Source: Planctomycetota bacterium (lineage in GTDB: Bacteria; Planctomycetota; PLA2; JAEUHO01). Taken from it: a stretch of 64,000 nucleotides of DNA. The DNA lies in assembly GCA_030065025.1 (NCBI GenBank), contig JASJDY010000015.1:2281-66280 (forward strand), in the 5' to 3' direction. Numbering within the stretch: the first letter of the stretch is position 1; each line of letters opens with the position of its first letter. Below the pieces are notes generated by a model that was not told where the DNA came from, searched no databases, and was given only the letters and a program-made list of their open reading frames with translations. This document shows, piece by piece, positions 6,527-46,600 of this stretch. The position numbers and the translations under genes are program-made.

Positions 6527-8019
6527 CGGCCGATGTCTGCCTGGTCCTGGAAGGCACCTACCCGTACGTGCCGGGTGGTGTCTCGGCGTGGGTGCACACG
6601 CTGGTCACGTCGCTACCCGACCTGACGTTCCACATCCTCCACCTGAGCGCCGCGCCGGGTTCGTACCCCAAGGGCATGCGCTATGAGATGCCGTCCAACG
6701 TCGTCGGACTCGACGAAGTGCACCTGCAGACCGGCGACGAGGATCTGCTGACCCGCTTCTCGGCGAAGCAGGTCGACGAGGAAGCGATCGCGTGCTTCGC
6801 AGACTTCTTCGACCAGGTCCGCGCAGGCGATGGCGATGCCTTCGCCGCGTTCTTCGACCTCGTCAACGACCCGGAGCGTGCCCGCCTGATGCGCCGGATG
6901 CTGCTGCAGTCCCAGGACGCCTGGGACGTGATGGTCGCTGCGTACCGCGAGGAGGCACCTGAGCGCAGCTTCCTTCGCTTCGTGTGGACGTGGCGCTTCG
7001 CGTTCCTGCCGCTGTTCAACGCGCTCGCCGCGCCTGTGCCCGACGCCCGCTGCTTCCACACGGTCTGCACGGGCTACTCCGGGATCCTCGCCGCCGGCGC
7101 CAAGGCGAAGACGGGCCGCCCGATGATCCTCACGGAGCACGGCATCTACACCCGCGAGCGACGGATCGACATCCAGAGCGCGGACTGGATCCCCGACCAT
7201 GCCGCCCACGAGTCGCTCGTGCCGCGCACGCCGCCCTTCTTCCGTGCGTTCTGGATGCGCCAGTTCGAGGTCATGAGCCGCATCTGCTACGAGTCCGCCG
7301 ACGGCATCTTCACGCTCTATGAGGGCAACCGGCGACTGCAGATCGGCGACGGCGCGGACAAGGACCTCATCCGCATCGTGGTCAACGGCATCGACCTCGA
7401 GCGCTACGGCAACGCACCCGCCGACGCTGAGACGCGCGACCCGAACGCCTTCACGATCGGCTTCATCGGCCGCGTGTGTCCCATCAAGGACGTGCGCACG
7501 CTGCTCCAGTCGATGCGCCTCGTCGTGGACGAGCTGCCGCACGCGCGCTTGCGCATCTGCGGGCCGCTGGACGAAGCCGAGTACGTCGACGAGTGCCGTC
7601 GGCTCACGCGGACACTGCGCTTGGAGCAGCACGTCGTCTTCGAGGGCCTGGTGGACGTCCCCCGCGTCCTGGGAGCGCTCGACCTGTGCGTCCTCTCGAG
7701 CATCTCCGAGGCGCAGCCGCTCACGATCCTCGAAGTCGGTGCGCGCGGCATCCCCGTCGTGGCGACGGACGTCGGTGCGTGCAGCGAGCTGCTCGGCGGG
7801 CGCACGCCCGAGGACCGTGCACTGGGCGACGGTGGGCTGGTGGTCCCGATGGCCACACCGGGCGCGATGGCGCGGGCCCTCGTGAAGCTCGCCCGCGACG
7901 AGGAGCTGTGTCGCTCCATGGGTGCCGCGATGCGTCAGCGCGTGCAGCGCTTCTACGACGTCGCCGACATGGTTCGCGAGTACGGCGACATCTACCGCAG
8001 TCACGTGGAGGCGGCCTGA
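6523..8019 (+). CDS. pelF: PelF-like GT4 family glycosyltransferase.
   Basis: 498 aa. It carries the GT4 signature region (ISEAQPLTILEVGARGIPVVATDVGACSELL) and a Rossmann-like C-terminal half. The size and position match PelF. Confidence 0.8.
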   Translation: MTADVCLVLEGTYPYVPGGVSAWVHTLVTSLPDLTFHILHLSAAPGSYPKGMRYEMPSNVVGLDEVHLQTGDEDLLTRFSAKQVDEEAIACFADFFDQVRAGDGDAFAAFFDLVNDPERARLMRRMLLQSQDAWDVMVAAYREEAPERSFLRFVWTWRFAFLPLFNALAAPVPDARCFHTVCTGYSGILAAGAKAKTGRPMILTEHGIYTRERRIDIQSADWIPDHAAHESLVPRTPPFFRAFWMRQFEVMSRICYESADGIFTLYEGNRRLQIGDGADKDLIRIVVNGIDLERYGNAPADAETRDPNAFTIGFIGRVCPIKDVRTLLQSMRLVVDELPHARLRICGPLDEAEYVDECRRLTRTLRLEQHVVFEGLVDVPRVLGALDLCVLSSISEAQPLTILEVGARGIPVVATDVGACSELLGGRTPEDRALGDGGLVVPMATPGAMARALVKLARDEELCRSMGAAMRQRVQRFYDVADMVREYGDIYRSHVEAA

Positions 8020-8020
8020 C

Positions 8021-9427
8021 ATGGCGGGTATCGGCTTCGAGCTGAAACGCCTCATCACTGAGGAAGGCGGCCTGATCTCGCGCGTGCGGGGCTATGCGAT
8101 CGCAAGCCTCGTGTCCGCAGGTCCGTGGATCGTCACGATCGTGGGGCTGGTCTGCATCAGCCTCACGGCACCGGTCTTCCTGGACCAGGACACGTACGAG
8201 GCGTTCCGCGCGATCGTGACGTACGCATTCGCGTTCAGCCTGATCGTGGTCGGCGCAGTGCAGATGAGCTTCACGCGCCGGGCGGCGGACCTGCTGTACT
8301 CGAAGCACTACAAGCGTCTGCTGCCGGCCCTGGCGCACGGGTCGAAGATCATCGCCATCGTGCAGGGCTTCATCGGGACGTTCTTCTGCGCGCTGGCGGG
8401 TCTGCCCGTCGCCCTGTCGATCGCCTCCGTGACGCTCTACATCGTCATCAGCCTCACGTGGCTAGCGCTCATCTGGCTCGGCGCAACCAAGGAGCACAAG
8501 AGCGTGCTCCGCTCCTATCTCTACGGCGGCCTGGTGTCCTTCGCCGGTGTGTCGCTGGCCGCTGCCGGAGCCTGGGGCATCGACCAGAGCGCGGCCTCGC
8601 TCGTGGGCGCGTACGCCCTGGGGCAGGGCCTCACGCTCGTGCTGCTCCTGCGAGCCGCCGTGAAGGCGCTCGACATGGGTGGCGTCGAAGACGGCAGCAT
8701 CATGCGGAGCGTCCGGACGTACCCGCGCCTGGCGCTGGTCGGCTTGCTCTACAACACCGCCATCTGGGCGGACCAGATCGTCTTCTGGTGCGTGGACGGC
8801 GTGGGCACCCACGTCCGCTTCCACCCGCTCTACGACACCTGCAAGTTCCTCGCGTACGCGTCGGTGATCCCTTCGCTCGCACTGATGCTGGTGCGCGTCG
8901 AGACCAGCTTCTACGAGTGCTACCGTGCGTTCTACGGCAGCATCCTGCGGGGCTTCCCGCTCGAGACGATCGAGCGCCGCAAGCGGGCCATGCTGGAGGA
9001 CCTGCGCGAGAGCACGGTCCGGCTGCTGCGCATCCAAGGCGCCGTGACCCTGGTGATGCTGTTGCTCGCCCCGACGATCATCCGCCTGCTCGGTCTGGGC
9101 GACGCGGCCGTCGACGTGCTGAGGGCCTGCTCACTCGCGGCTTTCTTCCACGTGATGCTGCTGATCGTCATCCTCGTGCAGATGTACTTCGACCTCCGCA
9201 GCAGCGCGCTGTGGACCTCACTCGTGTTCCTGGTCGCCAACACCGTGCTCGCGCTGTGGAGTGTCGGGGCGGGTGTCAACACCTACGGCATTGGCTACGC
9301 CGCGGCGGCATTCCTCGCGCTGTGCTTCGCCTACGCCACGCTGGTACGCAACTACGACCGCCTCGAGTTCCTGTCGTTCACGCAGCGCCCGGTCGAGATC
9401 GATCCGTTGCCCGAGAGCGCACGCTAG
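8021..9427 (+). CDS. pelG: PelG-like polytopic membrane protein (PST/MATE-like, about 12 TM).
   Basis: The N-terminus MAGIGFELKRLITEEGGL is characteristic of PelG. The 468-aa product is highly hydrophobic with about 12 TM segments. The ATG lies 1 nt after the pelF stop. Confidence 0.75.
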   Translation: MAGIGFELKRLITEEGGLISRVRGYAIASLVSAGPWIVTIVGLVCISLTAPVFLDQDTYEAFRAIVTYAFAFSLIVVGAVQMSFTRRAADLLYSKHYKRLLPALAHGSKIIAIVQGFIGTFFCALAGLPVALSIASVTLYIVISLTWLALIWLGATKEHKSVLRSYLYGGLVSFAGVSLAAAGAWGIDQSAASLVGAYALGQGLTLVLLLRAAVKALDMGGVEDGSIMRSVRTYPRLALVGLLYNTAIWADQIVFWCVDGVGTHVRFHPLYDTCKFLAYASVIPSLALMLVRVETSFYECYRAFYGSILRGFPLETIERRKRAMLEDLRESTVRLLRIQGAVTLVMLLLAPTIIRLLGLGDAAVDVLRACSLAAFFHVMLLIVILVQMYFDLRSSALWTSLVFLVANTVLALWSVGAGVNTYGIGYAAAAFLALCFAYATLVRNYDRLEFLSFTQRPVEIDPLPESAR

Positions 9428-10482
9428 CGTTCTTCGAACGCGTGCTCCGGCACCCGATCCAGCGGGGTGCGACTCACGCACGGCACGAACCCGAAGCCGC
9501 GGCTCGTCCGCAGTGCCTCCGCGACGTCGTCCTGCTCGCGCGCGTAGTCCGCGGTGAACACCGGCAGGCCCGCAGCGCGGTAGCGGCTGAGCAAGGCGGC
9601 GAGCGCCTGCATGTTCCACAGGTCGCCTGCGGGCCGCCTACGACCGCCGGCCGCAGGCGCTTCCCAGTCGTCCGTCGCGCTGCCCTGGAAGACGAGTCCC
9701 TCCTGCGCCACCCCGTCGAACCAGCCGGTGCTCTCGGGGATACGGTCGATGAGGTCGCCCGGGTTCTGCACGACGACGAGGAATCCAGGCCGGCTCTCCC
9801 GGGCGTAGGCACGAAGATCACGCACGAGCTCCGCCATGGCACGCGTGGGATCGACGCCTTCGCGCTTGGCCGTGGCCATGACCACGGGATCCGCGTAGCC
9901 GAGCACCCAGTCCAGGTAGACGCCGTCGAAGCCCTGGTCGAGCATGCGATCGAGCAGGGCACCGGAGGATCCAAAGAGCAGGGGACGCCAGCCGGGATCC
10001 CAGTACGCCACGGGGAAGTTCCCCTTCCAGCCCTCGGGATCCGGGCACAGCACGAAGCTCGTGCGCCCCTCGTCCGTGCGCTCCTTCGGCCGCCAGGCCT
10101 CCTGCCAATAGGCGCGGTAGTCCTCGGCCTGGCCGACGTTCAGATAACCCAGGACGAGCGGTCTCGCCTCGGCGCGCGACTGGAGCCGCTTCACGACCCC
10201 GCGCGTGGGGAAGTCTTCCTGCCCGCGCACCGTGTCGGTGGCCTCCAGCACGTACAGGTCGACGTTCGACCGCACGAGCCGATCCACGGCGCCTTCACGG
10301 TCGAGTCCCTGGAGCTGGTAGACCCACGACCGGACACCTGCGAGCGCACGCATCTGACGCTCGACCTCATCGCGCCTGGTCGCCTCAGGCGTACCCCCGG
10401 GCATGTCCGCGAGGAGCGCGTAGAGACCGAGTGCCGCAGCGGCGGCGAGGATCACGGAAGGCACGAGGACGCGGGGCGACAC
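9424..10482 (-). CDS. pelA: GH114-family glycoside hydrolase, PelA hydrolase-domain-like, membrane-anchored; no deacetylase domain.
   Basis: 352 aa with an N-terminal signal anchor. It has a TIM-barrel GH114-like sequence (YLDWVLGYADP, LVVVQNPGDL). It is convergent with pelG, and its stop overlaps the pelG stop. Confidence 0.65.
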   Translation of the reverse strand: MSPRVLVPSVILAAAAALGLYALLADMPGGTPEATRRDEVERQMRALAGVRSWVYQLQGLDREGAVDRLVRSNVDLYVLEATDTVRGQEDFPTRGVVKRLQSRAEARPLVLGYLNVGQAEDYRAYWQEAWRPKERTDEGRTSFVLCPDPEGWKGNFPVAYWDPGWRPLLFGSSGALLDRMLDQGFDGVYLDWVLGYADPVVMATAKREGVDPTRAMAELVRDLRAYARESRPGFLVVVQNPGDLIDRIPESTGWFDGVAQEGLVFQGSATDDWEAPAAGGRRRPAGDLWNMQALAALLSRYRAAGLPVFTADYAREQDDVAEALRTSRGFGFVPCVSRTPLDRVPEHAFEER

Positions 10483-21807: not shown

Positions 21808-23814
21808 ATGCCCCGGTCTCGACACGCACTCCGTGGCCCTGTCGCCGCCCTGCTCGTGCTCTCCCTGCTGAGTGCCGCCCTGCTGCTGGGGCCGGTCGTC
21901 CGGCCCGCGGAGGCCAAGGAGAAGCTGAAGCCGCTCGCCACGAACCAGATGAACCGCGGCGACCAGCTGGGCTTCAACTGGGATCCGAACACCCAGGGCG
22001 TCATCCGCGACGGCACGAACGACTGCTTCGACGGCGCCATGAACATGAAGGTGAACGGCGGCGACTTCCGCGCCAGCGGGCCGCCGATGCAGACCAAGGA
22101 CGGCGGCGAGTACGTTCTGCGGGGCGCGGTGGGCGACATCGCGATCACGCGTCGCATCCGTCTCGACCTCGTCAAGGGCGCCGCCCGCTACGTCGAGGTC
22201 CTGCAGAACAAGAGCAAGCGGGCCGTCACCGTGACCCTCGAGATGCGCTCGATGCTCGGCAGCAGTTGCCAGCAGGTGATGACGGATCAGGGTCGCGGCG
22301 TCCTCAACGGCCCGCTGGAGAAGAAGGAGTCCGGCCTGATCGCCGTCCACGGCGGCGGCTCGCGACCCAGCGTCCTGTTCCAGCTGCGGACGCCCCGCTC
22401 GAAGGTCGTGCCGCAGATCCAGGTCAAGAGCAACCGCACGTTCACCTTCACCTGGGTCGTCAAGATCGCTGCCGGCAAGTCGGCCGCAGTGCTTCACAGC
22501 GTCGCGCAACGACGTTGGGGCGGCCCGCCCATGGGCAAGCAACTGAAGGCCGAGTTCGAGCCGTTCCTCGAGCGCAAGTGGGCAGCGGGGCTGCCCGGCG
22601 CGGTGCGCAGTGCACTCGTCAACCACGTCGGCTCGGCCGGCGGCACGGCCTCCCTCTCCGCGAACCGCCCGGCCGACCAGGCGATTCGCGAGGTCGCGGC
22701 GGCCTACGAGGTTGAGCGCGGCGACGACTCCGTCGTGCTCATCGAGCGCGACAAGCCGCTCAAGGGCGAGGTGCTGGGCGAGACGCTGCAGGTCGCGACG
22801 CGGCTCGGCGAGGCGAGCGTGCCCTTCGATGAGGTCGCGGTGCTGCTGGGCGGCGCGAACCGCGGTCGCTCGATGCGGCTGTACCTGCGCGACGGCGAGG
22901 TGCTCGCAGGCGCCGTCCGCGCCGAGCAGCTTCAGTTCGTCACGCAGGCCGGTCTCGAGATCCCGCTCGATCCCGCCGGGATCGATGCGCTCTTCCTCCC
23001 CAAGGACGCAGCGGACGGGAAGCTCAAGCCGGGCTCGGCGGCCTTCCTCACGCAGCTCGACGGCACACGACTCGCGCTAGCCAAGGCGGAAGGCGGGCAG
23101 CTCGACGCCGTCACGCCGTGGGGCGATCTCGACCTCCCGCTGGAGGAGGCGGTCCGCATCGACTTCATGCGCGAGCCCGTGCCGGGGCTCTGGATCCTCA
23201 CGCGCAACGGCTCCCGCGTTCCCGTCGCGATCCAGGGTGGCTCCCTGAAGGTCGAGAGCCTGCGCTTCGGTCCTGTCGAGGTGGAGCCCGGCTCCATCGC
23301 TGCGTGGCAGCGCAACGGCGTCGACGTTCCGCTCGCCAAGAACGAGGATGGCGAGACGACGGGCCCGCTGGCGACGCACACGCGCCTGGCCGGCGAGTGC
23401 TTCCTCGTCGGCGCGCTGGCCGACGAGCAGCTTCACGCCGACACCCTCGCCGGCTCGACCGCCATCCGGATCGACCAGATCCTGAAGATCGAACGCGACG
23501 ACGAGGACGAGAGCATCCGCCCGGCCTTCGTGTTCACGCTGAAGTCGGGCGAGACCCTGAACGGGCGGCTCCGTGAGCGACTGATCTCGGTGCAGACGCC
23601 GTACGGGCTCTGCCGCGCCCCAGTGCTCCACCTCCGCGGCTACCGCTGGTATCCGCCCCCCGCGGAGCCCGGGCCGGATGAACCGGGAGACGGCAAGGTG
23701 GACGAGGCCAAGCCGGAGGACGCGAAGCCCGAGAGCGGAGACGCGCCCAAGGACGCCCCGCCGAAGGACAGTGCCCCGAAGAAGGACGCGCCCGGCGGGA
23801 AGGGGGGCAACTGA
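21808..23814 (+). CDS. Secreted hypothetical protein, paralog A (668 aa).
   Basis: It has a signal peptide and is clearly paralogous to the next gene (YLRDGEVLAGAVRAEQLQF versus YLRDGQKLVGAITAKALRF). Its C-terminus is low-complexity and Pro/Lys/Asp-rich. Confidence 0.55.
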   Translation: MPRSRHALRGPVAALLVLSLLSAALLLGPVVRPAEAKEKLKPLATNQMNRGDQLGFNWDPNTQGVIRDGTNDCFDGAMNMKVNGGDFRASGPPMQTKDGGEYVLRGAVGDIAITRRIRLDLVKGAARYVEVLQNKSKRAVTVTLEMRSMLGSSCQQVMTDQGRGVLNGPLEKKESGLIAVHGGGSRPSVLFQLRTPRSKVVPQIQVKSNRTFTFTWVVKIAAGKSAAVLHSVAQRRWGGPPMGKQLKAEFEPFLERKWAAGLPGAVRSALVNHVGSAGGTASLSANRPADQAIREVAAAYEVERGDDSVVLIERDKPLKGEVLGETLQVATRLGEASVPFDEVAVLLGGANRGRSMRLYLRDGEVLAGAVRAEQLQFVTQAGLEIPLDPAGIDALFLPKDAADGKLKPGSAAFLTQLDGTRLALAKAEGGQLDAVTPWGDLDLPLEEAVRIDFMREPVPGLWILTRNGSRVPVAIQGGSLKVESLRFGPVEVEPGSIAAWQRNGVDVPLAKNEDGETTGPLATHTRLAGECFLVGALADEQLHADTLAGSTAIRIDQILKIERDDEDESIRPAFVFTLKSGETLNGRLRERLISVQTPYGLCRAPVLHLRGYRWYPPPAEPGPDEPGDGKVDEAKPEDAKPESGDAPKDAPPKDSAPKKDAPGGKGGN

Positions 23815-25817
23815 TGCGCCATCTTCCGCTCGCCCTGCTCGCTCTCGCCTCGCTGGCGCTGCTCGGTACAGGTCCCGATGCCGCGGCGGCCGAGAAGCTC
23901 GTACCGGCCAACTACCGGGCGCAGAACGACGTCCACGGCATGGCCTACACCTGCGACCAGCACGGCCGCGTGCAGTCGCAGTACGGCTGGCTCTACTCCG
24001 GATTCACGATCAACCGCAGCGGGCTGAACGTACAGCGGCGTCTCATGAAGCCCGGTGGCGGAGAGTACGTCCTCGAGGGCCGGATCGGCGCGATCGAGGT
24101 GCAGCGCCGCTTCAAGGTCGACCGCAAGCTGGGCGGCGTGCGCGTCGTGGAGGTGCTGCGCAACACCTCCGCCCAGCCGGTGCAGGCCTCCGTCATCGTC
24201 TTCGCACAGCTGAACAGCCGCTACCAGCGGGTGGTTACGAACACCGGCCGGGCCGTGTCGGGCGTGCTGCAGAAGAAGGAGTCCGGGGTCGCGGGCCTCA
24301 TGCGCTCTCCGGTCCAGGGCGCGGCGCTCTACTACCTCTGCAGCGCATCGAGCCGGGTGAAGCCCTCGGTGCTCAACAGCAACAATCACCAGCTGCAGTT
24401 CCACTACAACCTCCAGCTGCCTCCGCGCTCCCGCGTGGCGCTGGCCCACGGGGGCGTCATCCTGCGCATGGCCTCGATGCCGTCCCCCTCGGCCTTGGAC
24501 AAGCACTTCAAGCCCTTCCGCAGCCGGCGCTGGACACGCGACCTGCCGAAGGACGTGCGTCGCGGTCTCGTCAACACGCGCTCGCGCGGCGCAGGCTCCG
24601 ACGGCGGCATCCCGACGATCGAGCAGGTCCTGGAGATCCCCCCGACCTCCCTCGACCAGCTGGCCTTCTCGGACCAGACGCTTCTGCAGGGCACGGCGAC
24701 CTGCGCGCAGCTGGAGGTGGAGACGGCGCATGGACGGGTCGACGTGCCGTTCGATCGCGTCGCCGCGCTCGTCGGCTCGCGCCACGCCCAGCTCGAGCCG
24801 CGCGTCTACCTGCGCGACGGCCAGAAGCTGGTCGGGGCCATCACCGCCAAGGCCCTACGCTTCGAGATGTCCTCGGGCATGGCGATCGACCTCGACATCG
24901 AGAAGGTCGACCGCCTCGTCCTGCGCGAGAAGACGCGCAAGTCCGGCGATGCCGAGGGGGACTCCCCGGCGCTCGTGCCGGCAGGCGCCGACGTCGCGTA
25001 CCTGATCGAGACCTTCGAGGGCAACCGCCTGCGCACGGAGAAGGAGACCGAGTCCATCCGTGTGGCCACGCAGTGGGGCGAGATGACGATCGCCATCGAG
25101 GAGCTGCAGCGCCTCTACCTCGCCGGCGAGGACCTGCCCGGGTACTGGGTGGAGTTGCGCGACGAGAGCCGCTTCCGTGCCTTCGTGCGCGACGGTCCGC
25201 TCGCCATGAAGAGCGACCTCTTCGGTAGCGTGACGTTCCGTCCGCACCAGATCCGCCGGATCGCCGTCGTGCGTCGCAAGCGCCCGGGTCAGGAAGACGA
25301 CATCGGCGAGCTCCTGCGCCCCCACCTGGTCCTCGCAGGCGGTGACCTGTTCGTCGGCCGCATCGACCTGGACGCGCTCCACTTCCTCGCCCCCGGGGGC
25401 ACCGTGCCGCAGCCGCCGTCGCAGCTGCGCGTGCTCCACAACGAGCTGGACGGCGAGCGGCCCGGGCCCGCTGACACGTTGCGCTTCAGGGCGGAGGTCT
25501 GGGGCGGCGGCCACATCACCGGTGAGCTACGCGAGCTCGTGGTCCCTGTGGAGACCGCACGCGGAACGCTGCGCGTTCCCGTCCGCGACATCGTGGACGT
25601 GCTCGTCCCCACCCCCATCGTCCCCGAGGTCCTGCGCGTCCGCATCCGCACGCTCATCCGCGACCTCGGGCACCCGAGCTGGGAGAAGCGCGAGGCCGCG
25701 AGCTCCGCGCTGGCCGAGCTCGGCGAGCTGACCAAGCAGTCCCTGCAGCAGGCGCTGCGGGAGACCAAGGACCCCGAAGTCGAACGCCGCATTCGCAGGC
25801 TTCTGGACAAGATCTAG
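23814..25817 (+). CDS. Secreted hypothetical protein, paralog B (667 aa) with a C-terminal HEAT-like motif.
   Basis: It has a signal peptide (MRHLPLALLALASLALLG). Its start overlaps the stop of paralog A by 1 nt (TGATG). The C-terminus reads SWEKREAASSALAELGELTKQ. Confidence 0.55.
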   Translation: MRHLPLALLALASLALLGTGPDAAAAEKLVPANYRAQNDVHGMAYTCDQHGRVQSQYGWLYSGFTINRSGLNVQRRLMKPGGGEYVLEGRIGAIEVQRRFKVDRKLGGVRVVEVLRNTSAQPVQASVIVFAQLNSRYQRVVTNTGRAVSGVLQKKESGVAGLMRSPVQGAALYYLCSASSRVKPSVLNSNNHQLQFHYNLQLPPRSRVALAHGGVILRMASMPSPSALDKHFKPFRSRRWTRDLPKDVRRGLVNTRSRGAGSDGGIPTIEQVLEIPPTSLDQLAFSDQTLLQGTATCAQLEVETAHGRVDVPFDRVAALVGSRHAQLEPRVYLRDGQKLVGAITAKALRFEMSSGMAIDLDIEKVDRLVLREKTRKSGDAEGDSPALVPAGADVAYLIETFEGNRLRTEKETESIRVATQWGEMTIAIEELQRLYLAGEDLPGYWVELRDESRFRAFVRDGPLAMKSDLFGSVTFRPHQIRRIAVVRRKRPGQEDDIGELLRPHLVLAGGDLFVGRIDLDALHFLAPGGTVPQPPSQLRVLHNELDGERPGPADTLRFRAEVWGGGHITGELRELVVPVETARGTLRVPVRDIVDVLVPTPIVPEVLRVRIRTLIRDLGHPSWEKREAASSALAELGELTKQSLQQALRETKDPEVERRIRRLLDKI

Positions 25818-25849
25818 TTCGTCCGATCCACTAGAAAAGGCCCTGCCTC

Positions 25850-27295
25850 ATGATTCACGCCGATCCCCGCCCGGCCAAGCCGCCCCCCGAGGCGGACGCT
25901 GCCGCGCCGTTCCTGGGGCTGTCGCGTCGCGTCGAGCGCCGCATCTGGACGGCCCGCTGGCTCGACGCGCTCCGCGCCACGGCACTGCCCCTCTTCGGCC
26001 TGGCGGTCGTGGGCCTCGCCGCCGCCTGGCTGACTGGCACGAGCGAGCTGCCCGTCATCGCCCGTGCGGTCTTCGCCACAGCCATCGTGGCCGTGCTCCT
26101 GTGGGTCGCCGGCTGTGCCGTCTGGAGCCGCCTGCGCGACCCGGGTCACACCGCCGCCCTCGCCCTCTTCGACGAGCGCTCGGGCACGCATGAGATGTTC
26201 GTCTCCGCCTACGCCCTGGCGCGCGACCCCCAGCGGGGGCCCGGCGCGGAGCTCCACCTGCGGCGGGCTCACGCCGCCCTCGAGTCGGCAGCACGCAAGC
26301 TCGACGAGGCCGTGCCCGTGCGGGCCGCTCCCGCGAGCATCGTGGCACCGTTCGTGTTCCTGGTCGTCGCCTTCTTCGGGCTGCCGGCAGCAGCGCTGCC
26401 CCCGGCCGAGGAAGACGCCACGGAGCAGGCCGCCGTCGTCGGCGAGTCGCTCGACGAGGAAGCCCGCACGCTGGAGAAGCTCGAGAAGGGCCTCTCCGAC
26501 GAGGAGCGCGAGAAGCTCGAAGAGCTGAAGGCAAAGCTCAAGGACAGCGCCCAGAAGATGGCCAACCTGGAGAAGGACAAGTCCGCGCGCGACGTCCTGC
26601 AGGAGCTGGAGAAGCGCGCCCGCGACGCCGAGAAGCTGGCGGAGATGCTGGGCGCCGGCAGCGAGAAGCTGACGAGCGCCATGCTCGCCGAGCTGGAGCG
26701 CCACGCTGACACGGCGGAACTCGCCGGCGCACTGCGCGGCCAGAAGCTCGACGACGCATCCACCGAGTCGCAGAAGCTGGCGCGCCGGTTGCGCGCCGAG
26801 AACCTCTCCCTCGAAGCGCGCAAGCGCATCGAGAGCGCCTTCACGAAGGGCCTCGAGGCCGCGACGGCGGACGACCTCAAGACGCTGCTCGGACAGCACA
26901 TGACGGCGGCGCAGGCCGAGCTCGACGAGAGCAAGCCCCAGCGTGCCGCCGACGAGTTCGATCGTCTCGCGCGCCGCTATCAGCAGATGGCCCGGCGGCT
27001 GCGCAACATGGACGCGCTCAAGCGCCTCGCGCAGAACCTGCGCGCGTCCGGCCAGAAGGCCCTCGGCAACAATCAGGGCGCGATGCGGCGCATCGCCGGC
27101 CTCTCGAAGGGCGGCCTCTCGCGCGTCGGCTCGCAGCCTGTGAAGTTCTCGCTGGGCAGCCAGCGCCCGGGCAGCAACAACTCGTCCAGCACTCCGGGAA
27201 CGGGTCAGCCGGGCAACAACTCGAACAGCGGGCAGAACAGCGGCGCACCCGTTCCTGGAACCGCTGGACCGCCCAAGCCTCCGTGCCCGACCTGA
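25850..27295 (+). CDS. Membrane coiled-coil protein (TM helices plus a long Glu/Lys/Ala-rich coiled coil plus a G/S/N/P-rich tail). It ends at the first of four in-frame TGA codons; possibly a disrupted longer gene.
   Basis: It has 3-4 TM helices near the N-terminus and then a coiled-coil region. Protein-like coding continues in the same frame to 27826. Confidence 0.5.
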   Translation: MIHADPRPAKPPPEADAAAPFLGLSRRVERRIWTARWLDALRATALPLFGLAVVGLAAAWLTGTSELPVIARAVFATAIVAVLLWVAGCAVWSRLRDPGHTAALALFDERSGTHEMFVSAYALARDPQRGPGAELHLRRAHAALESAARKLDEAVPVRAAPASIVAPFVFLVVAFFGLPAAALPPAEEDATEQAAVVGESLDEEARTLEKLEKGLSDEEREKLEELKAKLKDSAQKMANLEKDKSARDVLQELEKRARDAEKLAEMLGAGSEKLTSAMLAELERHADTAELAGALRGQKLDDASTESQKLARRLRAENLSLEARKRIESAFTKGLEAATADDLKTLLGQHMTAAQAELDESKPQRAADEFDRLARRYQQMARRLRNMDALKRLAQNLRASGQKALGNNQGAMRRIAGLSKGGLSRVGSQPVKFSLGSQRPGSNNSSSTPGTGQPGNNSNSGQNSGAPVPGTAGPPKPPCPT

Positions 27296-27826
27296 GCGTC
27301 GAAGAGTGGGCAGGCGGGTCCGCCTCCGATTCCCGGCACGCGCCCAGGCAGCGGCGGTCAGCCGCCGACACCCGGCACCCCGCCTGGCGGCACCTGAAGC
27401 AGCCAGAGCGGCGGCACCTGAAGCGGCTCGGGTGGTACCTGAGGCGGTTCAGGTGCGGGCTCCAGTTCGGGGTCCACAGGCAGCAGCGGCGGATCGACCG
27501 GCAGTCAGGGCGGTGGTGGCACCGGCGGCCTGACGGCCGGCACGGGGACGGCCGGGCTCGGCAGCTCCCCCACGCGCCGGCTGAAGACGAACAAGGACGA
27601 GACCGTCGAGGCGCGCATCGGCAACGACGGTCCCTCCACGATGTCCGTGCGCGATCCGCAGGATCGCCGCGAGCGTTCCACGCGCAGCAAGCGCGACATC
27701 GCCATCGAGTTCTTGAAGGTGCAGGAGGAGGCGCTGGCGTCCGAGCCGCTGCCCCTCTCGCGCCGTGAGCACGTCTTGCGCTACTTCACGGCCTTGCGCA
27801 AGCAGCTGGAGTCCGAGAGCAAGTGA
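27296..27826 (+). pseudogene. In-frame continuation of the upstream gene: a G/S/T/P linker with TGA codons at about 27395, 27419 and 27440, then a conserved-looking C-terminal module ending in a TGA that overlaps the MoxR GTG.
   Basis: It is in the same reading frame as 25850-27295. Translation reads ...GGT*SSQSGGT*SGSGGT*GGSGAG...TRRLKTNKDETVEARIGNDGPSTMSVRDPQDRRERSTRSKRDIAIEFLKVQEEALASEPLPLSRREHVLRYFTALRKQLESESK. The other two frames are Arg-rich nonsense. Confidence 0.4.
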
Positions 27827-28953
27827 CGCCCACGCGGGGGCGTCCTCCGCCCCCGCAGCGCACTCCGCTCGCCCCGCGCCGGCCGGCGCACCCCAGGGAG
27901 GTTCCCGTGACGACCAACGACAACGACGCGGCAACGGCCACCGTCCAACCCGAGAAGCTCGAGGCCCGCTTCGCGGAGTTCCGGGAGCGCTTCGCCGCGA
28001 TGCAGACGGAGCTGCAGCGGGCGATCGTCGGCTACGAGGAGATGCTCCAGGACGTGCTCGTGGCCATCGTGTCGCATGGCCACGTGCTCCTCGAAGGCGT
28101 GCCCGGCCTCGGCAAGACGTACCTCGTGCGCATGCTCGCCCGGGCGCTCGGCGTGCAGTTCGGTCGCGTGCAGTGCACGCCCGACCTGATGCCCGCTGAC
28201 ATCCTCGGCACGCACATCGTCAACGAGGACAGCAGCGGCCACCGCGCCTTCTCGTTCGAGAAGGGCCCGGTGTTCACGAACCTGCTGCTCGTCGACGAGA
28301 TCAACCGCGCGACCCCGAAGACGCAGGCCGCCCTGCTCGAGGTCATGCAGGAGGAGCACGTGACCGTCGGCGGCGAGACGTTCTCGCTGCCGCGTCCCTT
28401 CTTCGTGATGGCGACGCAGAACCCGCTGGAGATGGAAGGCACCTATCCCCTGCCCGAAGCGCAGCTGGACCGTTTCTTCTACAAGCTCAAGGTCCCCTAC
28501 CCGAGCCAGGCCGAGCTCGTCGAGATCTCGCGCCGCACGACCGGTGCACAGGAGCCCGAGCTCGACGTCTCGATGCAGGGCGAAGAGCTGATCGCCTTCC
28601 AGGACCTCCTCAAGCACGTCCCGGTCGCCGATCCGCTGGCGTCCTACGCGGCGGCGCTCGTCCTTGCCTCGCACCCCGAGGAGAAGGACGGTCCCGTTGC
28701 CGACGTCAAGCGATTCGTGTCGTACGGGGCCAGCCCGCGCGGCATGCAGACGCTCATCCGGGCCGCACGCGTCCACTGCGTCCTCGACGGCCGCACCGCC
28801 GTCTCGATCGCCGACATCCAGCGCGTCGCGAAGCCCGCCCTGCGACATCGCATCCTCCTCAACTTCGAAGGCGAGGCCGAGGCCGTGGACGTGGACGGCG
28901 TCATCGACCAGATGCTCAAGGGTGTCCCGACGCCCGCGGGAGACGCTGCATGA
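27823..28953 (+). CDS. MoxR-family AAA+ ATPase.
   Basis: It has Walker A (LLEGVPGLGKT), Walker B (LLVDEINRA), the MoxR-type second region (VMATQNPLEMEGTYPLPEAQLDRF) and a C-terminal helical domain. Confidence 0.8.
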   Translation: MTPTRGRPPPPQRTPLAPRRPAHPREVPVTTNDNDAATATVQPEKLEARFAEFRERFAAMQTELQRAIVGYEEMLQDVLVAIVSHGHVLLEGVPGLGKTYLVRMLARALGVQFGRVQCTPDLMPADILGTHIVNEDSSGHRAFSFEKGPVFTNLLLVDEINRATPKTQAALLEVMQEEHVTVGGETFSLPRPFFVMATQNPLEMEGTYPLPEAQLDRFFYKLKVPYPSQAELVEISRRTTGAQEPELDVSMQGEELIAFQDLLKHVPVADPLASYAAALVLASHPEEKDGPVADVKRFVSYGASPRGMQTLIRAARVHCVLDGRTAVSIADIQRVAKPALRHRILLNFEGEAEAVDVDGVIDQMLKGVPTPAGDAA

Positions 28954-38785: not shown

Positions 38786-39727
38786 GTGAGCTCGACCACC
38801 TCTCGGACACTGGTCTACGACGGCGACTGCTCCATGTGTCGCCGGCTGAGTGCTCTCGCGGAGCGCCGGTGGCTCGTCGGGAGCGCTCGCAGGCTGCCGC
38901 ATGACGCCTTCGAAGGCGAGGAGGCCGAGCGGCTGGAGGCTGCGGACATCCGCAACGAGCTGGCTGTGATCGACGAGTCGAGCGGCGAGATCCGCTCGGG
39001 CTACGACGGGATCCTGTGGCTGCTCGAGGGCGGCCTGCTGCGCTGGCTCGTTCCGCTGTTGCGCTTCCCGCCGGTGCGCTGGCTGCTGCGTCACGACTAC
39101 CGCCTGGTCGCGTACAACCGACGCATCCTGGCGCCGCCGCGTCGGAACGTGGCCTGCGCCTGCGATCCGGATCTCCATCGCGGCTACCGCTGGGCGTTCA
39201 TCGTGGCCGCCCTGCTGTGGACCGGGATCTTCGGCGCGATTGCGGGTCTCGGGCTATGGACCGATCAGGAGCTCTACGGGCAGAGGCCCGTGCCGCTGGG
39301 CGGCGTTCACGGCACAGCGTGGACCGGCGTCTTCCTGCTCGTGGGCTGGGCCGCGACGGCCTTGCTCGCCTTGCGCCTCCCGGCGCCCCGCGGTCTCGAC
39401 TATCTCGGCCACATGGCGTGGACGTATGCGGCCATGGTGTTGCCGCTGATCCTGGCGGTGTTCCTGGTGCTGCTCGGGTTCCTGCTCGCGGTCGCGGGCC
39501 TGCTGCCGTTCGACGCGACGCCGTTCTTCTCGAACCCATCCGTGCCCGCCCGCATCGCCGTGGTGGCGTGGGGCCTCGCCCTGCCGATCGCGATCGGCTC
39601 CTGCCTGTGGCGCCTGCCACGGGTGGGGCTCGCGAAACACACGGCCCTGATCGTCGCTCTTGTTTCCTGGTTGCTCCCTACCGCGCTTCTCCTCGGATTG
39701 CTCCCCACCCCCATCCATGTGGCCTGA
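38786..39727 (+). CDS. DCC-family (DUF393) thiol-disulfide oxidoreductase-like domain fused to a polytopic membrane domain.
   Basis: The N-terminal VYDGDCSMCRR motif is typical of DCC/DUF393. About 5-6 TM helices follow. Confidence 0.6.
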   Translation: MSSTTSRTLVYDGDCSMCRRLSALAERRWLVGSARRLPHDAFEGEEAERLEAADIRNELAVIDESSGEIRSGYDGILWLLEGGLLRWLVPLLRFPPVRWLLRHDYRLVAYNRRILAPPRRNVACACDPDLHRGYRWAFIVAALLWTGIFGAIAGLGLWTDQELYGQRPVPLGGVHGTAWTGVFLLVGWAATALLALRLPAPRGLDYLGHMAWTYAAMVLPLILAVFLVLLGFLLAVAGLLPFDATPFFSNPSVPARIAVVAWGLALPIAIGSCLWRLPRVGLAKHTALIVALVSWLLPTALLLGLLPTPIHVA

Positions 39728-40646: not shown

Positions 40647-43600
40647 TCAGCGGCCCTCGTTCCAAGCCGTGAGGGCCCGGCAGTAGCCCTGACCCTCTGC
40701 ATAGCTCGGATGGCCTGCGCGGATGCCGCTGTCGAAGCCGACGCGCTGAAGCCACGCGTCCGCGGCCGTCATGGTCGCTGCGATCGATGACGGGTCATGG
40801 CCCGCGCCGACGTTCAGCTTCGCGCCGATGAGCGACCACGCCACGAGCATGGACATGTCCACCTGGACAGCAGTCCGCGCGGCACTGCGCCCGTAGCGAG
40901 AGGCCTGGATGAGATTGCCGTGGTCGAGAATGGCCCGCGCCTCGGCCTGTGTGTAGGTCGTGCCGCCGAGCAGGATGCTCGTGAGCGGCCAGGCAGAGGT
41001 GTTCGTCCCCCACCAGCCGCAGACGTTGCGTGCGCCACCGGCCGCTCCCAGGAAGCCGAAGTCCAGATCGAAGTTGTCGGCCGTGATGGTGGCCGAGGCG
41101 TTCGTGCCCGCTCCGGTGCTCGTCAGCCCGACGAGCGGTCCTCCCGTCTGGAAGTTCGACGGATCGATCTCCACGCGGTAGTCGCCTGCCGGAACGAAGA
41201 AGCGGTACTCACCGGCCGCGTTGGTCGTGTCTGTGCCCACGACCGCACCGGATCCGTCCCGCATCACGACCAGCACGCCCGGGATGGGTCGCTCGCCGAG
41301 CGCAGGCTCGTACACGCCGTCCCGATCGGAGTCGAGCCAGATGACGTCGCCCACGGTGTAGAGCACGAGGGCGTAGCCGAAGTCGGCATCGTCGACGTCC
41401 TGTCCACCGGCAAGCGCGACGTCGCGCGGCTCGGAGCCGCCGGTCAGCGTCAGGTCGGGCGGGAGCGTGCTCTCGCGGACGTCGAGGCGGTAGAGCCCGG
41501 GCGGCAAGCCCGTTACGTCGTAGCTGCCATCGGCCGCCGTGGTGACGCTGCCCTGCGGGTCGTCGTCGGCCGTACCGAACACGCCGTCCGGGCCGGCCTC
41601 GATCACATCGATCGTCACGCCGCCGATGCCCGGCTCGCCGGCGTCCTGAACGCCGTCCTCGTCCGTGTCGTTCCACACGCGATCGCCGATGGATCCCGTG
41701 AACTGATAGCCGACGTCCACGTCCAGGCGGTCCTCGCTCGGCGCAAGCGTGACGTCCAGTGGCTGGTTGGCGGACGTGAGCACCAGGCCTGCCGGCAGCG
41801 TGCCCACATCGACGAGCATCCGGTAGGAGCCGGCGGGCAGGCCTTCGAAGAGGTAGTCGCCGCCTGCGCCGGTCGTGCGGCTGCCGACAGCGACGTCGTC
41901 GGCGGTTCCCAGCACCGTGTCCGGCCCCGCTTCGGTCAGCAGGACGGTCACGCCAGCCAGACCGGGCTCACCCGGATCCTGCGTGCCGTCGAAGTCCACG
42001 TCCTGCCAGATGCGATCACCGATCGACCCCGCGAAGCGGTAGCCGACGTCGAGGTCGTTCCGCTGCTCGCCCGTCCCCAGCGTGACGTCGAGCGGCAACG
42101 CAGCGCTGGTGCGCTCCATGCCCAGCGGGAGCGTGCTCGGATCAACGTCCACGCGGTAGAGGCCGGGAGGCAAGTTGGTGTAGCCGTAGTCACCGTCGCC
42201 GCTCGTCACGGCGTCGGGCAGGAGCACGTCATCCGCGGTGCCCAGCGTGCCGTCGGGCCCCGCTTCGCGCAGCCGGACGGTCACGCCGTTCAGCCCCGGC
42301 TCGCCGACGTCCTGGACGCCATCTCCGTCGAGGTCGTTCCAGATGCGATCGCCGATGGCACCCGCGTACTGGAAGCCGAAGTCGGCGAGCGCAGATCCCC
42401 CGCCGGCGGCCAAGGGCACGTCGAGCGGATCGTTCGAGGTCGTCAGGATCATGCCGGCGGGTGCAGTCGACACGTCGACGTCCACGCGGTAGAGACCCGC
42501 AGGGAGTCCGGCGAACAGATACGCCCCGTCCGCGCCTGTGACCGCATCCGGGAAGGTCACATCATCGGCCGTGCCGAACGCACCGTCGGGGCCCGCCTCG
42601 AGCAGCACCACGGTGACGCCCGTGAGGCCCGGCTCGCCGGGGTCCTGCACGCCGTCCCGGTCCACATCGCGCCAGACGCGATCGCCGATGGCACCGACGC
42701 GACGGAAGCCGAAATCGGCAGTCGTGACGACCTGGCCCGGGCTCAAGGGCACGCCCAGGAGCCCGCCGCCGGTCGTCGGCACGTAGCCAGCGGGGAGGCT
42801 CGCGCCGTCCACGATGACGCAGTAGTCCGCGGGCGGCAGCCCCTCGACGGCGTAGAGCCCGCCCCCGGAGGTCGTAGCGGCGGTCTGCGGGCCATCGTCG
42901 GCGGTGCCGCACACGCCGTCCGGGCCGCGGGTACCCACGAGCACCGTGATGCCGTCGAGCCCCGGCTCGCCGGGATCCTGGACGCCGTCGCCGTCGAGGT
43001 CGTCCCACACGCGATCACCGATGCGGCCGCTGTGACGGAAGCCGAAGTCCACGGTCGTGAAGACGTCGCCTGCGTTCACGGTGACGTCCAGCGGATCGGT
43101 GGTGGTGGCCGCCATGCCCGCCGGCACGGTCCCGTCGCTGACGTCGATCCGGTAGAGGCCCGGGGGCAGACCGGTGAAGCCATAGTCACCGTCACCGGCC
43201 GTCACCTGCGCGCCGACGCTGACGTCGTCCGCCGTGCCGAGCACGCCGTCGGAGCCTGCCTCGGTCAGGTTCACGGTCGCGCCGTTGATCCCCGGCTCAC
43301 CCGGGTCCTGGATGCCGTCGGCGTCCAGGTCCTCCCACACGCGGTCACCGAGCGATCCCGCAAGCCAGTAGCCGAAGTCGAACGTCGTGACGTCCTCGCC
43401 GGCGGCGATCGTCACGTCACGCGGATCGGGGGTCGTACCTGCGTACCCCGCAGGCAACGACGCGTCGTTCACGTCGACGCGATAGAGCCCCGCAGCGAGG
43501 TCCGCGAACAGGTAGGCTCCGCCGGCTCCGGTCGTCGTGGAGCCGAGTGCGATGTCGTCTGCGGTGCCCAGCGTTCCGTCGGCGCCGGCGCCGGTCAGCG

Positions 43601-46600
43601 TCAGATCGACGCCGCTCAGCCCGGGCTCACCGGGGTCCTGGGTCCCATCGCCGTCGACGTCGTCCCAGACGCGATCGCCGATGGAGGCGGGAGCCCAGAA
43701 GCCGAAGTCGGCGTCGGCGAACGTCTCGCCCAGCGCGAGCGACCGATCCAGAGGATCGTTGGCGGTGCTCGAGACCAGACCCGCGGGCAGCGTTCCGTCG
43801 CTGACGTCGACGCGGTAGAGGCCCGCCGAGAGGCCGGTGAAGGCGTAGTCGCCGTCCCCCGCGGTCACCTGCGAGCCGCCGGGGACGTCGTCGGCGGTGC
43901 CGAAGGCCCCGTCCGGGCCGGCCTCGGTGAGAACCACCGTGACGCCGTTGAGTCCGGGCTCTCCGCCGTCCTGGACGCCGTCGCCGTTCGTGTCGAGCCA
44001 GACGCGGTCGCCCAGGCTCCCTCCGATCACGTAGCCGAAGTCGGCGTCGTCGTAGTCCTGACGCGGCCCGAGCACGACGTCGGCGGGCTCGTTCCCCGTC
44101 GTGAGCGAGGCGCCTGCGGGCAGGGTGCTCTCCAGCACGTCGACCCGATACAGTCCGGAAGCGAGGCCGGGGAAGTCGTACGCGCCGCTGGCCGTCGTCG
44201 TCGTCGTGAACAGGCTCACGTCGTCTGCTGTGCCCAGGACGTCGTCCGGTCCCGCCTCGGTCAGCTGCAGCTGAACGCCACCCAGGCCACTGTCGCCGGC
44301 ATCATCGACGCCATTGCCGTTCGCGTCGTTCCAGACGCGATCCCCGATCGAGGCGTCGTCCGCGGCGTAGCCGAAGTCCACGGTGGTGTCGTTCGTGCCC
44401 GTGGGCAGCGCGACGTCCAGGGGCTCGTTGCCGGACGTGAGACTGGTGAGGCCCGGAGGCAGGGTCGACGCATCGACGCTCACGCGGTAGCTGCCGGATA
44501 CGAGCCCTGGGAACGTGTAGAGACCGCCGGCGTCCGTGACCTGCGGCGGAAAACCGACATCGTCGGCGGTGCCCAGGGTGCCGTCCGGTCCGGCCTCCAC
44601 GAGAGTCAGCGTCACGCCGGGGATGCCCAGCTCCCCGCCGTCCTGGATGCCGTCCGTGTTGTCGTCGTTCCAGACGCGGTCACCGAGCGACGCGTTGCCG
44701 ACGAAACCGAAGTCCGCATCTCGCAGGGTCTGCCCCTGGCGCAGGTTGAGACGCAGCTCCGTCGTGAAGGTGGTGAGCGTCGCGCCCGTAGGCACGTCCG
44801 TCACGTCGACCGTGACGGAGTAGGAGCCGGCAGGGAGATTCCCGAACTCGTACGACCCGTCGGCCGCCGTCGTCGTCGTGCCGGCCGTCACGTCATCCGC
44901 CGTACCGAAGTAGCCGTCGGGGCCGGGCTGCGTGAGCGTCAGATCGACATTGGCTAGACCGGGCTCGCCTGCATCCACGACGCCGTCGGCGTCGACGTCC
45001 AGCCAGACGAGATCGCCGATCCGGCCGGGGTAGACGTAACCGAAGTCGCCGTCGAGATCGTTGCTCCCGGCGGTGATCGTCGCGGCGTACGGCTCGTTGG
45101 CCGTGGTCAGCGTCGCACCCGGGGGCAGCGTGGACTCGTCCACGTCGACGCAATAGGGACCGTCCGAGAGGCCGGAGAACAGATAGTAGCCCCCACCATC
45201 GGTCGTCGTGGTCGCCTGGAACACGTCGTCGGCTGTGCCGCACAGGCCATCGAGCCCGGGATCGTAGAGATCGACCTTGATCCCACGCAGCCCTGGCTCC
45301 GTCGGGCCCTGCAAGCCGTCGCTGTCGGCGTCGAAGAAGACCGTGTCGCCGAGCGTGGCGACGGCGCCGGTCTTGACGAAGTCGAGGCCATTCACGGTGT
45401 TGCCGAAGCCCGTCACGCTCACGGGCTGGACGTTGGCCTGGGTGAGAACGAAGTCGGCGGGCAGGGTCGACGTGTCGAGCGTGATCACGTAGTCGCCGGT
45501 GGAGGCCACACCGAAGCAGTAGTCGCCCGAGGCGTCGGTCACGGTGCTGACCAGGGCCGGGTCGAGATCGGCGTCGAGCACGTCGTTGTCGTCGAGGTCG
45601 CGCCAGAGCACGACCGTGACACCGCTGACGCCCAGCTCGCCCGGATCCTGGATGCCGTTGCCGTTGTCATCGCACCAGACGCGGCCACAGAACTCGTTCA
45701 GATCGGCGGTCAGGAATGCCATGGACTCGAAGTCGCTTCCGCCGACCGTCAGGCTGCGACGATCGAACGCCTCGCCGGTGACGCGGTTGATCGAGAAGAC
45801 GGCATTGTTGTTGCTCGAGCCGTCGGCCGCGGTGTTGCTGCCGCTACCCGTGACGCCCCACATGGTGGCGTCGTTGTAGAAGGCGAAGCCCTCCATGTCG
45901 TTGACGCCGAGCGCCCCGACGTCGGATGCGACGCCGGTAGCCTTGTCGATGCGCACGAGGCGATCGGCGAGCCCACCGCCGTTCGCGATGCCGTAGAGTT
46001 GTCCGTCGTAGGGATCGATGGCGATGTCGTCGATGTCGAGGTTGCCCGGCTCGACAGGCGGCACGCGGAAGTAGTCGTACGAGCTGCCGCCGATGGAGAA
46101 GGCGCCACGCACGATATGGCCCGTCCCGGTGTCGAAGATGAACAGCGCGTCTGCGCCACCGATGCGGGCCACACCGTAGGCGACACCGGTGTTCGGATCG
46201 AAGGCCACGCTGTCGATGTCGCTGAAGCTGTTCGGCGCGAGCGACTCCGGCGCCCTGCTCGCAGAGAGCCCGACCAAGTTGGCCGTGTTGCCGTCGTTCC
46301 ACACGTCCGTCGTGACGCTCTGCGTCCACACGCCGGTCGTCAGACTGATGGTGCCCAAGCGGTCGTTGTTGAAGGCATACAGTGTGTCGCTGCCGGGCCA
46401 GAACGCCGAGCCCTCGATGTTGTTCGTTCCTGTCCCAGCACCGATCGCGGTCTGCGCGTTCTGCGGAACGGGGAGGGTGATGTCGACGCTGAACAGGCGG
46501 TCGTTGCCTCCCCCGCCCCCGCCGGCGTCGGCAATGACGTACCAGACCGGTGTGCTCAGGGCAGAGGGACCGCCGGCACCGGGCGCCTCGACGGGGAGCC

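Follow-up and report, generated by a model that had tools for sequence, protein, structure and literature searches.

A bacterial selenocysteine insertion sequence (SECIS) has to adjoin the UGA codon that it serves, and this is thought to hinder the evolution of proteins with several selenocysteine (Sec) residues. In the consensus model of the bacterial element, the apical loop measures 3-9 nt, the upper stem 4-16 bp, and the minimum free energy is -7.5 kcal/mol or lower; a G stands at either the first or the second loop position, and the loop lies 16-37 nt from the UGA (PMC13188914). A 2026 catalogue comprises 119 prokaryotic selenoprotein families, of which a small subset carries two or three Sec residues, examples being an arsenite methyltransferase/AhpD fusion (three Sec), MbdU, TsoB (UxxxxU), and a selenobacteriocin (SGUG, two Sec) (PMC13188914). 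Full selA/selB/selD sets and selenoproteins have been published for several Planctomycetes (PMC4807772). Here we describe a gene at positions 25850-27826, on the plus strand, of a 64,000-nucleotide stretch of contig JASJDY010000015.1 from a Planctomycetota bacterium (assembly GCA_030065025.1); this whole stretch is called the window. Four TGA codons interrupt the reading frame of this gene. Comparative analysis suggests that its most likely product is a single membrane-anchored protein of 658 residues, with selenocysteine inserted at each of the four internal UGA codons through the bacterial SelB/SECIS pathway.

The reading frame, its internal TGA codons and their conservation

Translation from the ATG at 25850 yields 658 codons, four of which are UGA, followed by the true stop codon TGA at 27824-27826. 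The internal TGA codons begin at 27293, 27395, 27419, and 27440, where a previous sequence-only reading of the window had placed them. The first, TGA1 (27293-27295), belongs to the motif TGC CCG ACC TGA (27284-27295), which would encode Cys-Pro-Thr-Sec, a CxxU motif. TGA2 (27395-27397) is located in the first of three GGT-U units (PPGGT-U-SS), TGA3 (27419-27421) in the second, and TGA4 (27440-27442) in the third, and these three codons share the context GGY ACC TGA RGC. They had been described as lying in a 24/21-nt tandem repeat; the units are indeed 21 or 24 nt long, but the array found by Tandem Repeats Finder is short (27416-27455, period 21, 1.9 copies, score 59).

The predicted protein begins with a membrane region containing three hydrophobic stretches recognized by eye (approximately residues 44-64, 68-92, and 163-183; 25979-26398), which is followed by a charged, coiled-coil-like region rich in Glu, Lys, Ala, and Leu with the family-invariant motif AELERHAD (26402-27049). 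A Pro/Gly/Ser/Thr tether in which PxPG(T/S) units recur connects this region to a conserved C-terminal module of about 85 residues (27572-27823; DETVEARIG, FLKVQEEALASEPLPLSRREHVLRYFTALRKQLE). According to the positive-inside rule, the coiled coil, the linker, and the C-terminal module would be located outside the cytoplasm. No match was obtained for the protein in Pfam or in NCBIfam, NF04xxxx selenoprotein models included, and one homolog gave a weak DUF3347 match.

Several properties of the sequence identify the region downstream of the TGA codons as part of the gene. The frame had been said to remain protein-like beyond its first TGA, and the G+C content at third codon positions (GC3) agrees: it is 0.94 for 27572-27823 in this frame, compared to 0.90-0.94 for the N-terminal part and the neighboring genes. 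This value resembles that of the proven genes of the window and shows that the stretch after the TGA codons is coding in the same frame. The additional statement that the other two frames are nonsense does not hold in the sense of frames full of stops, since they run without a stop for 75-161 codons, a length that 72% GC (about 70% for the window) would lead one to expect; the coding frame is therefore identified by codon-position composition and by conservation. TGA terminates 20 of the 31 GC3-supported open reading frames (ORFs) of the window and is thus the main ordinary stop codon, its normal use as a stop elsewhere having been remarked earlier; this rules out a global reassignment of TGA in the genetic code. 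Frameshifting around the stops is ruled out by the conservation of frame 1 between the TGA codons. No further in-frame stops flanked by high-GC3 coding sequence were found in the window beyond ordinary gene junctions. In the public annotation of the source assembly, the gene appears as a truncated hypothetical protein of 481 amino acids and a 61-amino-acid fragment.

The orthologs analyzed were the window sequence (together with L065, which is 99.7% identical), L001, L003, L004, L049-L054, and L055-L057, in total 13 distinct sequences. Between the N-terminal part and the C-terminal module, they contain 36 in-frame stop codons, all of which are TGA (36/36, with no TAA or TAG), and no frameshifts. 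Each ortholog has two to four of these codons in one frame and at fixed alignment columns, and this applies to 12 orthologs beyond the window, down to about 41% protein identity. L065 comes from a second assembly (GCA_029980125.1, contig JARPMZ010000020.1) that departs from the window at 18 of 6446 bases and shares its four TGA codons.

A search with the read-through translation as query retrieved as closest relatives 15 proteins from Planctomycetota metagenome-assembled genomes (47-100% identity), which had been called as proteins of 467-527 amino acids and cover about 73% of the query. At about 30-40% identity, most relatives are 580-657 amino acids long, and many of them consist of one ORF covering 95-98% of the query. 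Comparison with orthologs, one of the checks suggested by the sequence-only reading, was informative at both distances: in all 35 distant orthologs from Planctomycetota and Verrucomicrobiota in which both parts were found, they are fused in one uninterrupted ORF, and the close orthologs keep TGA at the same columns. Synonymous variation is seen in the codons next to the TGAs (Thr ACC/ACG/ACA, Ala GCG/GCT/GCA, Cys TGC/TGT). Pairwise ratios of nonsynonymous to synonymous substitution rates (dN/dS) were 0.12-0.26 for the C-terminal module at dS values of 0.4-1.0, 0.15-0.31 for the N-terminal part, and 0.28-0.56 for the linker between and after the UGA codons. The values of the module are no higher than those of the N-terminal part and indicate that this module, downstream of the TGAs, is under purifying selection.

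The residues aligned with the TGA codons were compared in a protein alignment of 10 orthologs; L055-L057 were outside this alignment and were compared by motif. The TGA1 column is TGA in the window, L003, and L001 (CPT-U-ASK), in L051 (CPG-U-ANCG), and in L054 (PC-U-PNCG), and L057 has CPG-U-ANCN at this site. The same column is a Cys codon (TGC) in L004 and L049 (CPG-C-PNCG), and L055 and L056 have CPGCPNCG. L053 (CPI-C-GRP) has a gap at this column, and its second Cys is placed there by motif only. As read from these sequences, TGA1 and the codon for the second Cys of a CxxC motif replace one another by a change of the third base only, inside a block that is otherwise conserved. Such Sec/Cys alternation is the classical signature by which new selenoproteins are defined (PMC12013277). 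The columns PGGT-U and SGGT-U are TGA in 10 of 10 aligned orthologs, and L055-L057 carry two or three GGT-U units. A third unit is present in the window, L003, L050, and L055, and L065 shares all four TGA codons of the window; TGA4 itself is confined to the window, L065, and L003. The nearest intact, UGA-free outgroup, L005 (JANQEJ010000250.1), has a double CxxC cluster, CESCEGKGCAEC, at the place where the clade with UGA codons has CPTU or CPGCPNC, and this linker suggests that a knuckle with a metal-binding or redox role was ancestral and was later partly converted to Sec.

Hairpins downstream of the TGA codons

The sequence-only reading had pointed to SECIS-like structures as a possible sign of recoding, and such structures follow every TGA codon of the set. 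Our scan was stricter than the published model in that it accepted only contiguous stems and considered the energy of the hairpin alone; it misses the bulged SECIS elements of Escherichia coli fdhF and fdnG, and it is therefore conservative and not a reimplementation of bSECISearch. The main scan included 28 UGA codons, to which L055-L057, recovered in a later metagenome scan, add eight. A hairpin of -5.5 kcal/mol or lower is present within 16-37 nt of all 28 codons. The criteria of the published model are satisfied after 22 of the 28 UGAs, compared to 12.9% of the sense codons of the same genes and 11.4% of the linker codons of intact orthologs. When the spacing was restricted to 19-22 nt, where most of the loops lie, the count was 20/28, compared to 2.8% and 2.5%, respectively, a 25-fold enrichment over the background. 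Six of the 28 sites miss the energy threshold with contiguous stems; four of these (TGA1 of the window, L001, and L051, and TGA2 of L052) were folded together with their flanks and reached -12 to -20 kcal/mol, the other two being TGA1 and TGA2 of L003. All eight UGA codons of L055-L057 are followed by a hairpin at a spacing of 19 or 22 nt with a loop beginning with G. The loops of the family are GGUC, GUU, GYGG, AGGUA, or AGUUC, and GGUC occurs in the first hairpin of the window and, in seven orthologs, in the last one.

In the window, four SECIS-like hairpins were identified on the plus strand. Hairpin 1 (27312-27325, AGGCG-GGUC-CGCCU) has its loop 21 nt after TGA1, is extended by lower stems to 27304-27332 (-15.8 kcal/mol), and is kept as a stem-loop in L003 and L001. 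Hairpin 2 (27415-27434, CACCUGA-AGCGGC-UCGGGUG; -8.6 kcal/mol) is located 24 nt after TGA2 and contains TGA3 in its 5' arm. Hairpin 3 (27435-27456, GUACCUGAG-GCGG-UUCAGGUGC) has 9 bp, an energy of -11.7 kcal/mol, and a loop 22 nt after TGA3, and its 5' arm contains TGA4. The loop of hairpin 4 (27457-27475, GGGCUCC-AGUUC-GGGGUCC) lies 21 nt after TGA4. Hairpins 2-4 abut head to tail and form one array (27415-27475). What had been taken for a tandem repeat is thus a chain of modules, each consisting of a UGA and a SECIS-like hairpin, with a period of 21-24 nt, which also encodes Gly-Gly-Thr-Sec-Ser-Gly-Ser. In this architecture, a module of 21 nt provides a hairpin that encodes Gly/Ser/Thr linker residues and at the same time embeds the next UGA. 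At position 4098 of L065, which corresponds to 27447 of the window, one of the 18 differences between the two assemblies, a change from G to C (Gly to Ala), converts the loop of hairpin 3 from GCGG to GCGC and leaves the stem intact.

Among orthologs, the hairpins keep their position and loop while their stems change. The stems after the last UGA differ between lineages (GGGCUCC/GGGGUCC, UCCCCC/GGGGGG, GGCUCCG/CGGAGCC, GUUCCUC/GAGGAGC, UCCCG/CGGGA, AGGAGC/GCUCCU, and GCUUCCC/GGGAGGC), as do the peptides that they encode. The inner hairpin occurs in two synonymous versions for the peptide GGTUxGSG: in the first, GCACCUGAA-GYGG-UUCAGGUGC, the Ser codon UCA pairs with the UGA, and in the second, CGGAACC-UGANNN-GGUUCCG, the Gly codon GGA pairs with the Ser codon UCC. 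Covariation here denotes differing stems at a fixed offset and not a formal count, as the register shifts by 1-3 nt between orthologs and makes an ungapped alignment unsuitable. Where a Cys codon replaces TGA1, three of the four Cys-type orthologs lack such a hairpin.

Proposed selenocysteine insertion and alternative explanations

The selenocysteine reading draws on what is observed in these sequences, namely the conservation of the UGA codons, the Sec/Cys pairing, the position and covariation of the hairpins, the purifying selection downstream, and the single ORF in distant relatives. According to this reading, all four UGA codons would be decoded by repeated SelB/SECIS-dependent insertion, each with its own small stem-loop whose loop is located about 19-24 nt after the codon. 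As in the standard bacterial model, with which the measured spacing agrees, a hairpin positioned at the mRNA entrance of the ribosome would allow SelB·GTP·Sec-tRNA(Sec) to outcompete release factor 2. The first Sec would complete the CxxU motif (Cys-Pro-Thr-Sec), which is CxxC in sister species, and the other three would be placed in GGT-U-SGS units of 7-8 residues. After each insertion, the ribosome would melt the hairpin, reach the UGA inside it, and meet the next hairpin at the right distance. Under selenium scarcity, termination at a UGA would be expected to give a truncated isoform lacking the C-terminal module. SelB and tRNA(Sec), and with them selA, selB, selC, and selD, are presumably present in these genomes, and selenium would be incorporated at the UGAs. 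The suggestion that recoding is confined to the repeat was only half right: recoding is favored by the Sec/Cys alignment and the SECIS-like hairpins, which together point to selenocysteine insertion, but TGA1 lies about 100 nt upstream of the repeat in the CxxU motif.

Several results weigh against this reading. Neither sel genes or other selenium-related genes nor a tRNA-Sec gene was found in the 64-kb window or within up to 10 kb around each ortholog, and ARAGORN detected no tRNA or tRNA-Sec in the window. A search with E. coli SelA as query returned 8000 scored candidates that were all enterobacterial, which left the Planctomycetota out of view. Insertion of Sec is inefficient in E. coli, and four insertions in series would give little full-length protein unless the system is better in these bacteria. 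At gathering thresholds, Rfam gave no SECIS or other credible RNA family in the whole window, and at E values up to 10 it gave no SECIS in 27250-27560, only chance matches to mir-4449 and isrG. Compared to dinucleotide shuffles, the hairpin segments have z-scores of -0.3 to -3.2, a stability that is unremarkable for GC-rich sequence; for this reason, the RNA evidence rests on position, loop motif, and covariation and not on energy. Intact homologs have PGGTC (P0020, Brocadiia) or PGTC or PGSC (P0023) just upstream of a conserved GGLxAGxGTA motif, at the place of PGGTU in the UGA-bearing clade, but this Sec/Cys pairing of the GGT-U units lies in low-complexity sequence where the alignment is uncertain, and it is supportive only. 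Finally, the linker is entirely free of Cys at 33 of the 35 distant ortholog loci, so the Cys/Sec decoration would be a lineage-specific elaboration.

ARAGORN also reported two "tRNAs" of 94-96 nt inside coding sequence of the ortholog loci, a tRNA-Gly and a tRNA-Gln (L056, 188-281, and L053, 1094-1189), of which the one in L056 is in the Gly/Ser-linker region. Both are implausible and probably are false positives caused by hairpin-rich, GC-rich sequence.

The strongest competitor of the selenocysteine reading, although we consider it unlikely, is that the UGA codons are recoded with a residue other than Sec, either by a near-cognate tRNA (Cys or Trp) stimulated by the hairpins or by a tRNA with a UCA anticodon that carries Cys and is delivered by SelB; in both cases the protein would be of full length and have an ordinary residue at these sites. 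This explanation accounts equally well for the conservation, the frame, and the selection; the Cys at the aligned column would match near-cognate insertion of Cys, and the Sec machinery is presumed rather than seen. On the other hand, the nucleotide that follows the UGA can be A, G, or C, giving no common leaky context, and passive readthrough of two to four serial stops would be negligible, yet the C-terminal module is strongly constrained. If Cys were the residue required, a change from TGA to TGC or TGT would be a cost-free, one-base step; several lineages have made it at the TGA1 site, but none of the 13 orthologs at the GGT-U sites. The spacing of the hairpins and their G-first loops, including GGUC, also match the model of a SelB-binding SECIS specifically. 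Programmed readthrough independent of a SECIS was considered and rejected, as there are two to four stops in series and neither a shared downstream hexamer nor a leaky context such as UGA-C or UGA-CUA.

A more radical possibility, which we regard as rather improbable, is a hairpin array in which small G-loop hairpins about 20 nt after each UGA recode consecutive stops independently of SelB with an ordinary or a non-canonical residue other than Sec, in a genome whose main terminator is otherwise TGA; in its less radical form, Sec insertion would be processive, one SelB-bound array serving UGA codons 21 nt apart. If the processive form were true, the protein would act as a selenium-controlled switch, by which this MoxR-vWA envelope component is made either truncated or in full length.

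It is also conceivable, but very unlikely, that translation ends at the first TGA to give a product of 481 residues and that the C-terminal module is made by reinitiation or from an internal start, or is not made. Gene callers and NCBI do annotate a protein of 467-527 amino acids and a separate ORF of 55-107 amino acids, and a Met is present within the C-terminal module in 7 of 10 orthologs. However, in 7 of 10 close orthologs, no in-frame ATG, GTG, or TTG separates the last TGA from the DETV motif, and the conservation of residues already sets in 15-60 codons before the first available start. Between TGA1 and TGA2, the protein sequence is kept while synonymous changes occur, and the module has remained in the frame of the N-terminal part in 13 of 13 UGA-bearing orthologs despite many indels in the linker. 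No promoter-like or terminator-like site was found in 25600-28100. The dN/dS values, the lack of internal starts, and the lack of a promoter together indicate that the downstream part is translated in frame as a continuation of the upstream part. These data and the fusion in 35/35 distant orthologs contradict the idea, raised in the sequence-only reading, that the module might be a small gene in its own right, started independently.

A decaying pseudogene in which nonsense was copied by repeat expansion, or a sequencing or assembly artifact, had also been considered; errors and slippage are common in low-complexity repeats, and one repeat unit is shared by three of the TGAs. The comparative data refute both and leave almost no probability to them: the independent assembly holds the same four TGAs, TGAs at shared columns recur, at dS values up to about 1, in another 12 orthologs that come from different samples and sequencing projects, and the sequence downstream, free of frameshifts and with TGA as its only kind of stop, has a dN/dS of 0.12-0.26. 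Phase-variable expression by gain or loss of repeats and translational bypassing from ACC to ACC over the stops are similarly implausible and inconsistent with the sequence: the number of GGT-TGA units does differ between species (two or three), and the TGAs, each preceded by a Thr codon and lying in or next to a hairpin, superficially resemble the take-off site of phage T4 gene 60, but units of 21 or 24 nt cannot shift the frame and each still carries a TGA, a hop from one ACC-UGA unit to an identical one would end in front of a further UGA, the variation of the Thr codon (ACC, ACG, ACA) would break the matching of take-off and landing sites, and TGA1 lies outside the repeat.

Gene neighborhood and comparison with known systems

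The gene is part of a syntenic row that is kept in all ortholog loci: two paralogous proteins of 667-668 amino acids, the proposed selenoprotein, MoxR, a TPR/PQQ protein of 1459 amino acids, DUF58, BatA-vWA, a vWA protein with a GATase1-like domain, a DCC1-like thiol-disulfide oxidoreductase, and a Ser/Thr kinase. The MoxR-type AAA+ ATPase is encoded at 27907-28953 on the plus strand (AAA_3 at 9e-62, AAA_lid_2, bpMoxR). The frame of the proposed selenoprotein had been said to end exactly at the GTG of moxR; this is true for the longest moxR ORF, which opens at GTG 27823 and overlaps the upstream stop (GTGA), but GTG 27907, just downstream of AGGGAGG, is more likely to be the start, and gene calls in the orthologs similarly leave a gap of about 80-90 nt before moxR. 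The two paralogs upstream (21808-23814 and 23814-25817, plus strand) share 29% identity over 588 amino acids (E value 2e-58), belong to no Pfam or NCBIfam family, and keep their syntenic position at every ortholog locus; a HEAT-like repeat forms the end of the second. The DCC1-like oxidoreductase (PF04134, 2e-10; 38786-39727, plus strand) closes the same-strand row of MoxR, DUF58, BatA, and vWA genes. It could be the redox partner of the CxxU motif and the Sec tether. The most likely role of the flexible Sec/Cys tether, proposed with low confidence, is in redox reactions or in the binding of metal or chalcogen within a Bat-like envelope system.

Other genes of the window include one on the minus strand (40647-47252) for a giant protein of 2201 amino acids with 14 SdrD B-like repeats, CarboxypepD_reg, and SpaA-like domains, which probably is a surface adhesin. 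Part of a Pel-type exopolysaccharide cluster is located at 6523-10482, with DUF3492 and GT1 glycosyltransferase domains (PelF-like), PelG (7e-115), and, encoded by the other strand, a GH114 hydrolase, in agreement with the earlier mention of pelB. At 51931-53460, the minus strand encodes a diadenylate cyclase whose DAC domain is joined to DACNG and DACNH sensor domains; a CorA Mg2+ transporter gene at 50929-51885 adjoins it.

If confirmed, the protein would represent a new selenoprotein family without a Pfam or NCBIfam model, publicly annotated as a truncated hypothetical protein and a stray small ORF, and would raise the known maximum of Sec residues per prokaryotic protein from three to four. 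The 21-nt UGA/SECIS module could be a natural template for engineering bacterial proteins with several Sec residues. Selenium chemistry, in the form of a CxxU motif and a Sec-rich tether, would be placed in the poorly understood MoxR/vWA (Bat-like) envelope systems, which leads to a testable redox hypothesis. The case would also show that Sec in low-complexity regions can escape selenoprotein searches centered on the active sites of thioredoxin folds.

The neighborhood resembles Bat (Bacteroides aerotolerance) operons in its MoxR AAA_3 ATPase, DUF58, BatA-N plus vWA, further vWA, and TPR proteins. In contrast to these operons, the row adds the two 667-amino-acid paralogs and the DCC1-like oxidoreductase, and the protein itself matches no Bat family model. 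We know of no Bat component described as a selenoprotein. Eukaryotic selenoprotein P (SELENOP) is not homologous to this protein but likewise has many UGA-encoded Sec residues clustered in one part, and truncated isoforms of it arise by termination at UGAs. SELENOP depends on two SECIS elements in the 3' untranslated region that act at a distance via SBP2 and eEFSec, whereas here an adjacent hairpin follows each UGA.

Among prokaryotic proteins, those of the 2026 catalogue with several Sec residues are similar in that each polypeptide contains multiple Sec residues and that the Sec motifs are of the CxxU type or flanked by Gly, but they have at most two or three Sec residues, compared to up to four here, in tandem repeats of 7-8 residues with a SECIS for each. 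The gene family described here is absent from the 119 families of that catalogue (PMC13188914), and in the literature searched we found no description of a tandem array of abutting SECIS elements that embed UGAs, or of Sec in a low-complexity tether. The recoding mechanism itself is the known bacterial one. Unlike E. coli fdhF, which has one UGA and a SECIS with a bulged U, the gene has four UGAs, simple contiguous stems, and three abutting hairpins, two of which contain the next UGA; its Sec residues would be placed in a Gly/Ser/Pro-rich, probably disordered tether instead of an enzyme active site, and its Sec machinery is presumed. As in fdhF (read from NC_000913.3), an in-frame UGA is followed by a small stem-loop inside the coding region with a GGUC apical loop, the spacing is comparable (18 nt in fdhF and 19-22 nt here), and Cys replaces Sec in homologs.

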